In this document: positions 27,419 to 31,902 of the stretch, piece by piece
Numbering within the stretch: the first letter of the stretch is position 1
Layout: each line of letters starts with the position of its first letter
IMG/VR virus record: IMGVR_UViG_3300050503_000206
Source of the DNA: an uncultured virus (IMG/VR IMGVR_UViG_3300050503_000206)
Lineage: Duplodnaviria > Heunggongvirae > Uroviricota > Caudoviricetes
Length of the DNA: 48,880 nt
Reading direction: 5' to 3' (one strand)
Translations under genes and position numbers: made by a program
Notes under the pieces: model-generated
Told to the model about the DNA's origin: nothing
What the model saw: the letters and a program-made list of their open reading frames with translations, nothing else
Databases searched by the model: none

Positions 27419-28729
27419 TCACTCCGGGATGCCGTCGTCGTCGCCGGTCTCTTCGGTGGCGCGCTTCTGGATCTCTTTGACGAGGGCCCAGTCGACCCTC
27501 ATGGCTTGACGCAGCGTGAGCATGTTGAAGACGACCGGCTTCTCGAGCTCGCGCTCGGTGACTTCGGCGAGCACGTCCTTCATGGCCGGCTTGCCGTCGG
27601 GGTCGGGCAGGTCGCGGAGCTTCGCGACGGAGCGAAGCAGCTGTGCCAACCGCAGACGCGCCGCATGCTCGGGTCGCCAGATCTCGTCGAGATTGTCGGC
27701 ACCGTAGACGGCGGCGTCCACCGTGGGCATCGCCGGCTCCGTACCGCGTCTGCTCTGGGGAACATCCTCTGCGGACTCGCTCTCATCGTCGTCGATGACT
27801 TCGCCGGTCTCGGGGTCGTAGAGCTCCTCGTCGTCGTCCTCCGGGTCGGGCTCGGCGTCGCGTCGTGGGTACCACTCCGCCGCCACCTCGGCTTGCACAG
27901 GCTTCGACTCGTTCTGCCCCGGCGCGGGGAGTGCGAGCACGGCGGGATTCTGGAGTTGGATCACCTCGAGCCGCGTGCGCGCGCTCGCGATCGCCTCACG
28001 GCGCAGGCTCATGAGGTCGTTGGTGCGGCACTCGATGTGCACGACGGGCACGCGCCGGGTGTTGCCGCTGCCGTCCTTCTTCAGATCCCACTTCACGCAC
28101 AGCCACAGCTTGATCCCGCAGATCGTGCCGACCTGCTTCTGGATCGTCTCGAGGCTGTAGATGATCGACTTGATGCTGTTCCAACCCGTGGTGCGGAAGG
28201 CATGGCGCACGCCGAGCTTGGTCTCCGAGCCGGCGATGATGGTGCACCACAGGATGAGGTTGGGCTTGCACTTCTCGCCCTCGCGCGCGCGCAGGAGTTC
28301 GCACGGGCAGTCGAACGGCCGCGGGACGTTGCCTTCGTACCGCGTCGCCGATCCCTTACCCTCGCCGGTGCCCGTGCAGAACAGGTTGGTGCCGCGGTAG
28401 AGCGCGAGCCGGTGCGGCGCGATCTCGTCGATCGTGTCGGAGTCGATCATGATGGGGATCTGGCGGAGTCGACGCTGGTCGTCGCTGTCGCGGTCGGCGT
28501 ACTGCTCCATCTGCTTCATGATCGCGTTGTCGCGCACGAAGTTGGTGTTCTCGCCTGTGCCGCGCAGCGTCTTGGTGATGACGAAGTACGGGCCTTCCTT
28601 GCTCTCGAGCCTCTCGGGCTGCGCGAACTCCTTGCCCCGACCGGACTTCTTCTTCGCGCCGACCTGGCCGATCTTGATCTTGCCGGCTTCGGCACTTCGC
28701 GGAACGAGCACCTTGGAACTGATCGGCAT
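27419..28729 (-). CDS. Gp3-like (recombination directionality factor-like) protein
   Basis: AGKIKIG..K..G...P..F, C.G.GE, CPC..CKP, FRTTGWNS pattern. Confidence 0.6.
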   Translation of the reverse strand: MPISSKVLVPRSAEAGKIKIGQVGAKKKSGRGKEFAQPERLESKEGPYFVITKTLRGTGENTNFVRDNAIMKQMEQYADRDSDDQRRLRQIPIMIDSDTIDEIAPHRLALYRGTNLFCTGTGEGKGSATRYEGNVPRPFDCPCELLRAREGEKCKPNLILWCTIIAGSETKLGVRHAFRTTGWNSIKSIIYSLETIQKQVGTICGIKLWLCVKWDLKKDGSGNTRRVPVVHIECRTNDLMSLRREAIASARTRLEVIQLQNPAVLALPAPGQNESKPVQAEVAAEWYPRRDAEPDPEDDDEELYDPETGEVIDDDESESAEDVPQSRRGTEPAMPTVDAAVYGADNLDEIWRPEHAARLRLAQLLRSVAKLRDLPDPDGKPAMKDVLAEVTERELEKPVVFNMLTLRQAMRVDWALVKEIQKRATEETGDDDGIPE

Positions 28730-28731
28730 GA

Positions 28732-29025
28732 CTACTTCTCCTCCTCGAACAGCGCGAGCGTGTAGCGGAACTCGGCGTCGTCGTCGGCTGGCCCGAGGCG
28801 GTAACGAGACCCGTCTTCGTCGACGACCAGGAGTCCATCATCCGGCCCGCCGGGAACGTAGATCGCCTTGACGATCGCGCTGAAGTTCTCCTCGATCGCA
28901 CGATGGCAGTCCTCCTTCCGCGTGTAGCCCTCGTGCGGTGTGAGCGTGGTCTGCCCGTTCTCGGCGACGACGCGGAAGCGCGTCTCGCCCTTGCTGTCGG
29001 TGAAGGTCTCGATCTTGATGGCCAT
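28732..29025 (-). CDS. YegP/DUF1508-like protein
   Basis: FTDSKGETRFRVVAENGQ...EGYTRKEDCHRAIE. Confidence 0.75.
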   Translation of the reverse strand: MAIKIETFTDSKGETRFRVVAENGQTTLTPHEGYTRKEDCHRAIEENFSAIVKAIYVPGGPDDGLLVVDEDGSRYRLGPADDDAEFRYTLALFEEEK

Positions 29026-29037
29026 AGTGTTTCCTTT

Positions 29038-29322
29038 TCAGAAGTCTTGGTCTTGCTTCGCGAGCGCTCGGCAGAACGCTCTCGCTCTGGCGTGAGTCTC
29101 GGAGGACAGCGGTTGGAAGAACGCCACCAACGACAGTCCGATCGCCACGACGGCGACGATCGCCAGCGCGACGAGCATGGAGATGCCGCCGACCTTGTAG
29201 GCGCGGCTCTCGTTGGCTCGGTGCCGTTCCATGGAGCGATTGGCGCCATCGAGCCTCTTGTACGCGATCGCGAGTTCGGTGCGCAGGTCGTTGATGGTCT
29301 CGGTGTCGGTGCGGTAGTTCAT
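29038..29322 (-). CDS. small membrane protein
   Basis: One hydrophobic segment (ISMLVALAIVAVVAIGLSLVAFF); ATGA overlap with 29319 ORF stop. Confidence 0.65.
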   Translation of the reverse strand: MNYRTDTETINDLRTELAIAYKRLDGANRSMERHRANESRAYKVGGISMLVALAIVAVVAIGLSLVAFFQPLSSETHARARAFCRALAKQDQDF

Positions 29323-30329
29323 AGCTCTCCTTCACGCGGCGAACCGCTGGCTGAGCCGTCGCCAAGCTTCGACGACGAGCAGGGGCATGGCGGAGTCTCC
29401 GAGGGTTCCAACGCGCTCCACCCTCTTGGAAAGCCCAGGAGTGCTTCTACGAACTCCGGGTTGATTACCACCGTGCTCGGCAGTCCAGGCTCGCAGTGCG
29501 GCGCCATCTCGGGGTCCTGGCGGAGGACGGCACGCACCGCGTCGGTGAGCGAGGTCCCAGGATGCATCACCCCTGTCGAGGTCGTGTGCCGCCCGGAGGA
29601 GCGTGCGTCCGCCTTCGTCGGCGCAGGCCACAATGAAGATGCGCTCTCGATCAACGGGGTAGCCGACATCGGTACCTCGTAGACAACACCAGCTCGCATC
29701 GAACCCGAGCGCGGCAAGATCCCCGAGAACTCGTCCAAGGGCTGTCCGGGAAACAGCGAGCCTTGGGGTGGAACCCAGCGACCATCCGCAAAACGGGCAA
29801 TCTGGCGCATCTGCATCTTCGGAGACGGCGGCATGCTCATCGGTCCCCTGCGGTTGAGAATGTGGATCTTCTCCTTCATCGAGGCTGCTTCGATCCGCAT
29901 CCAAGGTTCCCAATGTCCTGGATGCTCGCTCCGTATTTCTTGGAGCCGGATAGCGATGTCCGCTTGCTCGCTCTTCAGGAGTAGGTAGGGTCGCACTCGA
30001 CGGAGGAGCTTCAGCGCGGGATCCCCGAAGATACGCCAACTGCACGTCAGAGACCATCGTTCGGTCTGCTGACGCTGATTCGAGATGGAGCCTCCGAAGT
30101 TCTTGCGCAACCACTGCAGCACCACAAGACCCTTCTCGCTCATGCTCACGTCGATCACGATCCAGTAGACTGGCTTCGTGGGGTTCCGGATGTTGTGGCC
30201 GATCCCGATAGAGCCTTCTCCGTCCAGGATGCCAGCCGCATACGCAGCGACAGTCTCCTCCGCTTGCGGTTCTGAGGGCAGCGACGTTTTCGACGAAGAC
30301 GATGGATGGTTCGAGCGTTTGGATGACAC
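29319..30329 (-). CDS. LAGLIDADG homing endonuclease fused to M.EcoHK31I-beta-like subunit, in an alternative frame of the MTase gene
   Basis: YAAGILDGEGSI..LQWLRKNFGG..VRPYLLLKSEQA (LAGLIDADG), then LPRSGSM..LWPAP..INPEFVEALLGFPRGW (motif IX-like); start uncertain (GTG 30329 with GGAG, GTG 30434, or ATG 29840 for beta alone). Confidence 0.7.
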   Translation of the reverse strand: MSSKRSNHPSSSSKTSLPSEPQAEETVAAYAAGILDGEGSIGIGHNIRNPTKPVYWIVIDVSMSEKGLVVLQWLRKNFGGSISNQRQQTERWSLTCSWRIFGDPALKLLRRVRPYLLLKSEQADIAIRLQEIRSEHPGHWEPWMRIEAASMKEKIHILNRRGPMSMPPSPKMQMRQIARFADGRWVPPQGSLFPGQPLDEFSGILPRSGSMRAGVVYEVPMSATPLIESASSLWPAPTKADARSSGRHTTSTGVMHPGTSLTDAVRAVLRQDPEMAPHCEPGLPSTVVINPEFVEALLGFPRGWSALEPSETPPCPCSSSKLGDGSASGSPREGEL

Positions 30330-30621
30330 GTAACATCTCCGACCATAGGCCGCTTTCGTCACCGTCGAGGCCCTTGCTGTTGCCCATGACGCTGACGTTC
30401 GTGCATGGAAAACCACCGCAGAGAAGGTCGACACGTGGCGACTCCGCTATCACCTCCCGAACGTCGGCGTAACCGATCGCGTCGGGCCAGTGCCGCGCGA
30501 GTACGCGATGACGCCACGGGTCGATCTCGGCGTGCCAGAGCACGGGTCCGAGACCCGCCCACTCGAGACCGAGCGCGATCCCGTCGCACGCGCCAGAGAA
30601 GAGCGAGCCGATCGTGATCAT
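29332..30621 (-). CDS. C5 cytosine DNA methyltransferase (alpha-type) with large internal insertion
   Basis: SLFSG (I), GGFPC (IV), SGLW, ENV (VI), ~180-aa insertion, LGRVLGDL, VGYPVDRERIF (VIII), LGDS (X); no clear motif IX in this frame. Confidence 0.85.
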   Translation of the reverse strand: MITIGSLFSGACDGIALGLEWAGLGPVLWHAEIDPWRHRVLARHWPDAIGYADVREVIAESPRVDLLCGGFPCTNVSVMGNSKGLDGDESGLWSEMLRVIQTLEPSIVFVENVAALRTASGGDCRCVCGWHPGRRRLYRDRPQHPEPHEASLLDRDRREHEREGSCGAAVVAQELRRLHLESASADRTMVSDVQLAYLRGSRAEAPPSSATLPTPEERASGHRYPAPRNTERASRTLGTLDADRSSLDEGEDPHSQPQGTDEHAAVSEDADAPDCPFCGWSLGSTPRLAVSRTALGRVLGDLAALGFDASWCCLRGTDVGYPVDRERIFIVACADEGGRTLLRAAHDLDRGDASWDLAHRRGACRPPPGPRDGAALRAWTAEHGGNQPGVRRSTPGLSKRVERVGTLGDSAMPLLVVEAWRRLSQRFAA

Positions 30622-31370
30622 GCGTCGTCCCTTCTCGCTTCCGGTTTCGTCATCCACGCCGGCAAATCGCCGGGCCCTGACGCACGTAGCCACGCCTCGG
30701 CGAGGCGGTGGCGGTGATCAAACAGATCCAGGAACCGGACACGACGCTGCGCGGCGCCGACACCGATCAGGTTGCCCAGGGTCCATGCGACCAGACGGCG
30801 GTCGACCCCGCCCATCGACTCGAAGAACACCGCGACACGAGCCGCGAGGAGCTCCGTCGCGGCAGCCTCCTTCCAGATCCGCGCCCGCGTGAGATGCGGG
30901 AGTGGCAACACGCTGACGTCGTGCGAGCAGGTGCACCGCCTGCGGTCGTACAGCGGCTGCCATCCCTTGCCGCCTCGCGGAGCGCACAGCCGCTTCCTCG
31001 CAGCTTCGCCACACGCAAGGACCAACACGTGAGTCTCGCCGAAGTCTCGCATGCGAGGCTGAGGCTGCGCGTCGACGTCGACGACATCGTAGCCGAACAG
31101 TTTTGTGACCCCAGGGAACGCACCGGTGTGCCGCTGTTGGCGGCCGAGCGTCCCTGCGGCGAGCTCAAGTAGCACTGAGACGACGCGTTCCGTGCGGTCG
31201 GCTCCGGTGGCATCGTGCAGGTTCATGGTGAGACCGACCTTCTTCAGCAAGGCCGTACGACCCTCAAGTCCGCCAAGCGTAGCGAGGCGATCTCCGCTGG
31301 GCGTATCGAACGCGATCTCGCTTCGGGACCGGCCCGGAGAGACGCCGACGGCGACGGTGAGCAGCGTCAT
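30618..31370 (-). CDS. uracil-DNA glycosylase-like fold protein
   Basis: VGVSPG..F..PSGDRL..NL..VLACG..A..LPHL resembles UDG superfamily motifs. Confidence 0.5.
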   Translation of the reverse strand: MTLLTVAVGVSPGRSRSEIAFDTPSGDRLATLGGLEGRTALLKKVGLTMNLHDATGADRTERVVSVLLELAAGTLGRQQRHTGAFPGVTKLFGYDVVDVDAQPQPRMRDFGETHVLVLACGEAARKRLCAPRGGKGWQPLYDRRRCTCSHDVSVLPLPHLTRARIWKEAAATELLAARVAVFFESMGGVDRRLVAWTLGNLIGVGAAQRRVRFLDLFDHRHRLAEAWLRASGPGDLPAWMTKPEARRDDA

Positions 31371-31720
31371 GAGTCCTCCGGTTTTGCAGCACGGATCTGC
31401 TTCGCGAGGTCGTCGTTGCGGTCGTCGGGACAGCTGCCGAAGTGGCTGCGCTCGCGGCACCACGGGCACCACGGCACGCCGATCGTCTCGGCGTCGCTCG
31501 GACCCACGAGTCCCATCGGGTCGCGCGGGGCTTCGCTCCGCGGGTCGTAGGTGCGTCCCTTGGCGATGCCCGCCTCGTAGATCCTGTGGAAGATCTGATC
31601 CCACGCCTCGCAGGCGTCGTCGGACGCGCATGCGCAGCCGATGAGCACGGACTCTGCGCTCGTGATGCGGATCTCGTCGATCTTGTCGCCGGTCGAGTTG
31701 TGGATGCCGAGCCGGTTCAT
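31367..31720 (-). CDS. hypothetical protein
   Basis: MNRLGIHN..., CPWC..H..SC; ATGA overlaps. Confidence 0.6.
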   Translation of the reverse strand: MNRLGIHNSTGDKIDEIRITSAESVLIGCACASDDACEAWDQIFHRIYEAGIAKGRTYDPRSEAPRDPMGLVGPSDAETIGVPWCPWCRERSHFGSCPDDRNDDLAKQIRAAKPEDS

Positions 31721-31902
31721 GGCGCCTCTCGTAGACGTGCGATCGCGCGCCCGGTCGACATGAGCGCAACGTGCAGCGGTCCCTGGATCACGAGCGGCGG
31801 TCGACCTGTCTTGAGTGCGTAGCGCAGCCACAGCCACTCGATGCGAAGCCCTTGTGCCCACGCGTCGAGCGCGAGTTTTCGGAAGTCGATGTCGCCCATC
31901 AT
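31717..31902 (-). CDS. hypothetical protein
   Basis: MMGDIDFRKL; ATGA overlaps, GAGG RBS. Confidence 0.55.
   Translation of the reverse strand: MMGDIDFRKLALDAWAQGLRIEWLWLRYALKTGRPPLVIQGPLHVALMSTGRAIARLREAP

Follow-up and report, generated by a model that had tools for sequence, protein, structure and literature searches.

A LAGLIDADG homing endonuclease reading frame within the overlapping C5 methyltransferase reading frames of an uncultured rhizosphere virus

The locus and the endonuclease domain

IMGVR_UViG_3300050503_000206 is the IMG/VR record of an uncultured virus (Duplodnaviria; Heunggongvirae; Uroviricota; Caudoviricetes) that originates from a rhizosphere metagenome. Here we describe a locus on the minus strand of the window, meaning the whole stretch of 48,880 nucleotides (nt) that was analysed, in which a LAGLIDADG homing endonuclease (HE) domain is encoded within a phage C5 cytosine methyltransferase gene. 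The locus consists of two overlapping long open reading frames (ORFs), 29332..30693 (453 amino acids, aa) and 29319..30434 (371 aa), the second of which lies in the +1 frame relative to the first. They are referred to as alpha and beta; they overlap by 1103 nt and the beta stop codon lies 13 nt past the alpha stop codon. The likely start of alpha is the ATG at 30621, which overlaps the stop codon of the upstream gene (ATGA). The G+C (GC) content is 0.575-0.59 over positions 29800-30399, as against 0.615-0.705 in the flanks, and a megablast search of window positions 29000-31000 against phages gave no match. The following features were assigned:

29332..30621, minus strand: alpha ORF, large subunit of the C5 cytosine methyltransferase, comprising motifs I-VI, then the insert that is read through, motifs VII-VIII, a linker of low confidence and motif X
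29319..30434, minus strand: beta ORF in the +1 frame, 371 codons, with the beta N-terminal part, the LAGLIDADG domain and a beta C-terminal part that holds FSGILPRSGSMRAG, WPAPT and motif IX
30442..30445, minus strand: GGAG read from the sequence 7 nt upstream of the beta GTG start codon (30432-30434), of presumed function
30337..30340, minus strand: second GGAG read from the sequence, 7 nt upstream of the in-frame GTG at 30327-30329, likewise of presumed function
30283..30291, minus strand: alpha motif VI (ENV), upstream copy of the duplicated dual-coding segment, read as SKT in the beta frame
29740..30273, minus strand: insert as the alpha frame reads it, alpha residues 117-294, stop-free and mostly modelled with a confidence below 50
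29835..30272, minus strand: LAGLIDADG HE domain with a single motif, I-CreI type, beta-frame residues about 55-200
30213..30248, minus strand: LAGLIDADG motif AAYAAGILDGEG, read in the beta frame
30238..30252, minus strand: first cysteine cluster of the alpha frame, CRCVC (CRCVCGW), which arises from AAYAA of the LAGLIDADG motif when read in the -1 frame
29788..29799, minus strand: second cysteine pair of the alpha frame, CPFC (CPFCGW), the -1 reading of beta IARFA
29626..29739, minus strand: alpha motifs VII-VIII (LGRVLGDL...RERIFIVA), with LGRVLGDL at 29716-29739; the same DNA encodes beta FSGILPRSGSMRAG...WPAP
29688..29729, minus strand: beta residues F236-G249, encoded by DNA shared with alpha motifs VII-VIII
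29418..29465, minus strand: motif IX-like segment of beta, NPEFVEALLGFPRGW, assigned from sequence and models
29383..29403, minus strand: alpha motif X, LGDSAMP (consensus LGNAVVP), assigned by sequence alignment

The alpha frame was identified as a C5 methyltransferase by its matches to Pfam PF00145 (E 8.5e-27) and to phrog_363 (E 1.8e-49, residues 1-423 of the 429 tested), and motifs I-VIII and X were present in an alignment with 30 relatives. Between ENV and LGRVLGDL the frame holds about 177 codons free of stops (29740-30273), where insertion-free relatives have 3-9 residues. A preliminary description of this DNA, made from the sequence alone, had placed about 180 extra stop-free methyltransferase residues between the same two motifs; alignment with the insertion-free homologues bore this out, and the coordinates it gave (29740-30290) are right. 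In the AlphaFold model of alpha the methylase core has a predicted local distance difference test score (pLDDT) of 85-95, and the insert one of about 30-60, mostly below 50 over residues 115-285.

The same DNA, read in the beta frame, encodes the endonuclease. Its motif AAYAAGILDGEG (30213-30248) has residues D14, G15, E16 and G17 invariant among five aligned homologues, and YxAGxxDGEG within the LAGLIDADG motif is among the invariant features of the alignment. By tblastn, gp5 of Gordonia phage Hans, an annotated LAGLIDADG endonuclease, matched the window with E 3e-25, and the window HE used as tblastn query matched 50 phage records at E<=1e-3. The domain also matched phrog_5046 (E 4e-24), a family labelled 'HNH endonuclease'. 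The Pfam model LAGLIDADG_1 taken alone is a weak match (E 0.0077, 17.5 bits, below the cutoff of 23.1). AlphaFold, supplied with a 50-sequence alignment, modelled beta-frame residues 50-200 at pLDDT 91-97, with a predicted order of secondary structure elements equal to the alpha-beta-beta-alpha-beta-beta-alpha core fold. A Foldseek search with this model returned I-CvuI, I-MsoI and I-CreI at E 4e-9, with a template modelling (TM) score, on the target, of about 0.7 and a root-mean-square deviation of 2.3-2.8 Å over about 140 residues. The LAGLIDADG domain reported in the preliminary description in another frame of the same strand is thus upheld by the homology to Hans gp5 and by the predicted I-CreI-type fold. 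It had been called hidden in an alternative frame; this holds with respect to the methyltransferase, for which the domain is out of frame, and does not hold in the sense of an unused frame, since the HE lies in frame within the nested beta gene described below.

Related loci were sought among viral contigs. A scan with a single HE protein as query confirmed no locus; a scan with the HE alignment as query yielded 80 loci of this endonuclease family, the five closest of which lie within C5 methyltransferase genes. The arrangement also occurs in cultured phages. Gene product gp64 of Mycobacterium phage DotProduct is annotated as a single methyltransferase of 663 aa and contains a LAGLIDADG ORF of 151 codons in the +1 frame, and the same arrangement is found in the Gordonia phages Hans and Ailee, as well as in Bibwit, Keitabear and others, with inconsistent annotation. 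Contigs from four DNA runs carried the insert-bearing allele wherever this region was covered, and among them there was neither a joint that skips the insert nor an empty allele.

The nested second frame

The beta frame belongs to the methyltransferase gene irrespective of the insert. Insertion-free relatives (xhp1, PFR1, PeaceMeal1 and Spartoi) have a conserved +1 ORF over motif VIII too. Full-length beta starts just upstream of SPAKTS, the +1 reading of the catalytic FPCQDIS, and ends with LNPTWVEWLMGFPLGWTD. Its C-terminal part matched phrog_1008, 'DNA methyltransferase', with E 3.9e-8 in the window and E values as low as 5.8e-29 in relatives, and it matched 5745 database proteins of 101-324 aa at E<=1e-5, most of them devoid of a Pfam domain. 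Searches of this part against Pfam and NCBIfam gave no match, and a sequence search of the PDB with the full beta protein of Paenibacillus phage Bloom returned nothing at E<=10. In the Bloom genome (gene GC 0.47) GenBank annotates both ORFs, one of 352 aa and a fully nested one of 235 aa; the available part of a paper on 48 Paenibacillus larvae phages does not discuss a nested methylase coding sequence (CDS). A scan of viral loci with the beta product yielded 80 loci, 79 of which had an N-terminal C5 methylase match. Beta lay in the +1 frame of alpha in all 79, and the alpha ORF covered the end of beta in 68 of them. The segment NPEFVEALLGFPRGW fits what we take to be the pattern of motif IX, and Pfam gave it no score. 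In the AlphaFold model of the beta frame, beta's own parts are mostly below pLDDT 60 except for the motif IX helix.

This layout is known from the methyltransferase M.EcoHK31I, the original paper on which is reportedly that of Lee, Kam and Shaw in 1995. In M.EcoHK31I, the alpha gene contains the coding sequence of beta in a different frame, alpha holds motifs I-VIII as well as X, and beta holds motif IX; the two are separate polypeptides, both are needed and they must associate (Meister et al. 2010, PMC2836561). Judged by gene layout, the methylase of the window is of the M.EcoHK31I type. The layouts differ in some respects. No endonuclease insert is described in the available part of that account, and the nesting in the window is incomplete at the 3' end, as given above. 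The target recognition domain is placed in alpha in M.EcoHK31I (PMC2836561), whereas a well-conserved region between motifs VIII and IX lies in the beta frame here.

A predicted complex of alpha with beta residues 205-371 fits the two-subunit layout. It scored 0.88 in three runs, compared with 0.00 for the best of three controls, a mark that 116 out of 157 solved complexes attain, as do 2 out of 215 mismatched pairs. At least 72% of the contacts are common to the runs, and the pLDDT of the partner is 63 or more. In the model, alpha residues 307-313 (GFDASW) pair with beta residues 243-247 (SGSMR), both encoded by the same DNA (window positions 29688-29729), and alpha motif X contacts the beta motif IX segment (NPEFVEALLGFPRGW). 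The model describes a predicted fit of the chains, not binding, and its good score may reflect likeness to solved single-chain C5 methyltransferases.

The position of the HE relative to beta varies among carriers. In the window and in four metagenomic relatives (L011 to L014), a single ORF runs from the canonical beta start through the HE to the beta end (5/5). An ATG lies within 1-8 codons of the LAGLIDADG motif in L011, L012 and L014, and there is none in the window and L013; the only in-frame start of the window besides GTG 30434 is GTG 30329. In the actinophage relatives, the HE has its own start and stop codons, and an ATG restarts a beta-like ORF right after that stop. The location of the HE in frame inside beta provides an obvious route to its translation.

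The site of insertion is itself dual-coding. In 12 of 12 insertion-free genes, alpha ENV and the beta motif (W/L/S)(R/K)TSQ (WRTSQ) are encoded by the same nucleotides. In the five insert-bearing genes, ENV stands upstream of the HE and the beta motif, as FAR..W.T.Q, stands downstream of it, where the alpha frame reads a degraded VDNI, LDDT or IDET. By this reading of the frames, the dual-coding ENV/WRTSQ segment is present twice, with the upstream copy serving alpha and the downstream copy serving beta.

Constraint on the host frame across the insert

The alpha frame is open across the whole HE in five of the five embedded loci and in none of the 75 others. Stop avoidance was tested by permuting the synonymous codons of the HE in 3000 trials for each sequence and counting the stops that this creates for alpha. 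A stop-free host frame came out in a fraction of 0.0010 of the trials for the window (mean 5.25 stops), and of 0.0013, 0.010, 0.034 and 0.0003 for the metagenomic relatives L011, L012, L013 and L014; these values are not to be simply multiplied because the sequences are related, with HE identities of only 33-42% among those tested. L014, one of the five embedded loci, has a locus GC of only 0.48 and an HE segment GC of 0.53. The third frame has 8 stops in the window and 8-15 across the tested sequences. The avoidance of alpha-frame stops across the HE is under selection and exceeds what is expected by chance.

In the alpha frame, CxC and CxxC bracket the insert of every complete copy. The first pair corresponds to AY(A/V)AG of the LAGLIDADG motif read in the -1 frame, and CxC occurs at this position in nine of nine embedded copies, which are related and do not represent independent events, as against just one among 74 free-standing relatives. 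The second pair likewise derives, by -1 reading, from beta FAR(L/H/F)(V/A) or, in the actinophages, from the HE C-terminus APIA. Each of the four cysteine codons needs a wobble T in the HE/beta frame, and T occupies all 32 of these positions across 8 sequences, where the background frequency of T at third positions is 0.06-0.19. These counts are good evidence that the alpha-frame cysteines are selected, and a putative metal (zinc) clasp formed by the four cysteines is a reasonable proposal for their role.

The preliminary description had stated that the host frame stays open and that the pairs in CRCVCG and CPFCG bracket the insert. Both statements withstood the permutation test (P 0.0010 for the window) and the conservation counts given above (9/9 for CxC, 32/32 for wobble T), and stops in the methyltransferase frame, which it had named as evidence to the contrary, were found in none of the five embedded copies.

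A separate observation concerns the insert-free methylase of Rothia phage Spartoi (L006), which has CPGC at the site of the second cysteine pair (about 1870-1900); this may be the remnant of a lost insert or a chance occurrence.

Explanations and related systems

The locus probably arose by insertion of an I-CreI-type single-motif LAGLIDADG HE gene, with neither intron nor intein, in the dual-coding part of a phage C5 methyltransferase gene of the M.EcoHK31I type. On this reading, translation of alpha would continue across the insert, which would form a flexible loop of some 170 residues, pinched off between motifs VI and VII by a CxC...CxxC metal clasp; the HE would be an internal domain of beta, with translation beginning at the beta start, and the C-terminal part of beta would still dock on alpha; and the HE would cut insert-free alleles at the ENV-coding site and spread by repair. 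More tentatively, and as a possibility only, we propose that the HE has adapted to DNA read in two frames: it would ride in beta and borrow the beta start, its codon choice would keep the alpha reading free of stops and supply the four-cysteine clasp that closes off the loop, and the invaded segment would have been duplicated, leaving each of the host frames with a good copy. If true, one insert would serve three proteins at once, and the methylase would be active with no splicing of RNA or protein.

Several points weigh against this explanation of the locus. Translation of either frame is itself inferred from the sequence. Of 91 alpha columns with a conservation of 85% or more, 33 differ from the consensus in the window, in a reference set that is biased towards relatives of L011 and from which L012-L014 also diverge (22-37 of 91); among the altered positions are PCQ (PCT in the window), GN (GD in the window) and the motif I glycine loop, and the window beta departs at 19 of 41 conserved columns. 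Because hallmark residues are changed, the methylase of the window may be weakened or dead and perhaps no longer methylates. The zinc clasp is confronted with the low confidence of the alpha-frame insert in the AlphaFold model (pLDDT about 30-60). The proportion of hydrophobic residues in that insert, 0.15-0.24, equals the expectation under synonymous permutation; selection for a hydrophobic-poor insert was considered and rejected, the value being no lower than expected. Taken singly, the high-GC actinophages do not show significant stop avoidance (DotProduct 0.074, Hans 0.21, Ailee 0.11), and the nine embedded copies in which CxC was counted share ancestry. The similarity of the two copies of the duplicated segment at the DNA level is weak, with local alignments only, so the duplication is argued from the frame logic of the ENV/WRTSQ positions. 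Finally, Whitney and Getalong carry a clearly decayed version of the element, and GenBank joins the methylase CDS of Gordonia phage Ailee around the LAGLIDADG gene as if around an intron.

The last two points lead to other explanations of the locus. On the decay view, the methyltransferase was broken by the insertion and is decaying, with its frames open owing to high GC and recent ancestry. The hallmark changes in alpha and beta (PCT, GD, motif I) and the Whitney and Getalong genes agree with it, as does the general abundance of long alternative ORFs in this window of 60-70% GC, which has 97 ORFs with a length of 200 aa or more over its 48.9 kb. We nevertheless consider it unlikely: zero stops are expected with a probability of 0.001 in the window and 0.0003 in L014, where the HE segment has a GC of just 0.53, the open host frame separates the embedded loci (5/5) from the others (0/75), wobble T is kept at 32/32 positions, and the alpha-beta complex model is confident. 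Removal of the insert from the mRNA as a group I or other self-splicing intron with a LAGLIDADG ORF would make the open host frame irrelevant. Besides the Ailee annotation, for which our literature search found no paper testing the intron-like reading, it is favoured by the nearest structural relatives. I-CreI, I-MsoI and I-CvuI are free ORFs within group I introns. An intron is still very unlikely here. Selected stop avoidance and four selected cysteine codons would be purposeless if the RNA were spliced, and the insert is continuous in frame with beta. Outside the HE domain it comprises just some 30 nt on the upstream side and some 90 nt on the downstream side, and a ribozyme core would need to overlap the ORF. 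No Rfam intron family was detected in window positions 29000-31000 (E<=10) or in seven related loci (E<=1), a search that divergent introns could escape.

The two other explanations retain the insert in the mRNA. Under one of them the methyltransferase is a single chain made by programmed frameshifts, with the HE bypassed or included by recoding. The conserved motifs indeed switch frame, with I-VIII in the first, IX in the second and X in the first again, and five database proteins (P0002, P0069, P0074, P0089 and P0120) fuse an alpha N-terminus to the beta frame. M.EcoHK31I, however, makes two separate polypeptides from this layout (PMC2836561), beta start codons stand at a conserved place just upstream of the SPAKTS segment, and no slippery site was seen in the locus, all of which makes frameshifting highly improbable. 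The other supposes a non-canonical intein with the HE in another frame, removed from alpha by protein splicing. Actinophage inteins with out-of-frame or antisense endonucleases have been reported (bioRxiv 10.1101/2025.01.02.630785), and the alpha-frame insert starts near a cysteine. The evidence from the alpha frame leaves next to no room for an intein: Pfam at E<=1 found only DNA_methylase and no intein or Hint match, the insert has no C-terminal HN, the roughly 10 and 25 alpha-frame residues beyond the HE-coding part are too few for a Hint domain, and the AlphaFold model of alpha has no folded splicing domain. The preliminary description had likewise seen no intein ends in the methyltransferase frame.

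Insertion with neither intron nor intein has a close parallel. To our knowledge, homing endonucleases were thought to persist within genes only by means of self-splicing introns or inteins, or else to reside between genes. The work on the ShiLan domain, a hidden out-of-frame HNH endonuclease in actinophage DNA methylases, put forward a third way, an out-of-frame insert that is read through, and left open how the nuclease is translated and whether its presence is tolerated by the host protein (Gosselin et al. 2023, PMC9957025; Arsenault, Gosselin and Gogarten 2025, PMC11855218). As far as described there, ShiLan and the window insert are alike in that both are inserts, presumably mobile in the case of the window, at a conserved site of a phage methylase, absent from homologues, with no stop in the host frame, no detectable intein or intron and the nuclease in another frame; in both, the start of the insert resembles the downstream flank. 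Unlike in ShiLan, the nuclease of the window is LAGLIDADG by fold and motif, not HNH, so the insert is a variant of the ShiLan arrangement and not a member of it. The host differs too, being a C5 methylase with a nested beta gene in frame with the HE, and four selected cysteine codons bracket the insert. The splicing-free occupation of a gene by an endonuclease, as put forward in the preliminary description, stands as far as the selected open frame, the lack of intein ends and the lack of a detectable intron are concerned; as an idea it was already in print for HNH endonucleases (PMC11855218).

The fold and the host can each be set beside further known cases. The homodimeric enzymes I-CreI, I-MsoI and I-CvuI share with the window HE a single LAGLIDADG motif with a conserved acidic residue, in agreement with the predicted fold; the window HE differs from them in being fused inside a host protein frame with no detectable intron. 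The methylase Taj_79 carries a LAGLIDADG domain in its polypeptide with no intein splicing blocks, and there the domain is in frame with the annotated methylase (PMC9957025), whereas the window HE shares its frame with beta alone and not with alpha. Taj was absent among the 50 phage records that matched the window HE at E<=1e-3.

Our literature search for a LAGLIDADG case of this kind found only the HNH work, the supplements of which might list genes of the DotProduct type. What appears to be new is the LAGLIDADG family, the host of the M.EcoHK31I type, the HE in frame with a nested beta, the duplicated dual-coding segment and codon-level evidence for selected cysteines. The finding would extend read-through inserts to the LAGLIDADG family and to two-subunit C5 methylases, and an HE in frame with a second host gene is a concrete candidate answer to the question of how a hidden nuclease is translated. 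Stop avoidance, together with four cysteine codons held by rare T-ending codons, provides evidence at the sequence level for selection on the host-frame reading. Among the carriers, the Gordonia phages Ailee and Hans and the Mycobacterium phage DotProduct are in culture, which makes the idea directly testable. The annotation of these loci is inconsistent at present, being a join, a split CDS or one long ORF, with the nested beta mostly unannotated.

Some further observations were made on the related genes. In Gordonia phage Whitney (L003, 1801-2600), the HE is cut off after about 115 residues, methylase motif VIII is absent and motifs IX-X lie in the third frame, yet gp80 is annotated 'DNA methylase'. 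Another locus (L131, 728-2314) has unusually long alpha (529 aa) and beta (388 aa) ORFs in which Pfam finds the methylase only, and it may hold a different insert. The five alpha-beta fusion proteins listed above join an alpha N-terminus, with motif I or motifs I-IV, in frame to beta sequence, and may reflect frameshift variants, mistakes in sequencing or genuine fusion. Upstream of the methylase locus in L014 (1074-1139) there is a near-threshold Rfam match to DUF3800-VIII RNA (38.3 vs 40.2 bits, E 0.0011).

The neighbours of the methyltransferase gene in the window are encoded on the same strand (27422-29322 and 30621-31769). They include a protein resembling Gp3-like recombination directionality factors (E 2.7e-17), a DUF1508 protein (E 6e-8), a 94-aa ORF (29041-29322) that has no Pfam family and looks hydrophobic by eye, and a 383-aa protein with no family assignment, the stop codon of which overlaps the methylase start. 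Contigs of two DNA runs join position 29160 to 31067 via 35 other letters at a depth of 5-8; this joint may represent a relative in which the methylase cassette is missing altogether, or an artefact due to the GC-rich stretch 29131-29177, to which many unrelated contigs match. Positions 2501-2935 of Gordonia phage Nordenberg (L009) match LAGLIDADG with E 3e-5 over 85% of the query, in antisense orientation to gp9, the MuF-like minor capsid gene, which fits the inteins with antisense LAGLIDADG endonucleases reported from minor capsid proteins (bioRxiv 10.1101/2025.01.02.630785).

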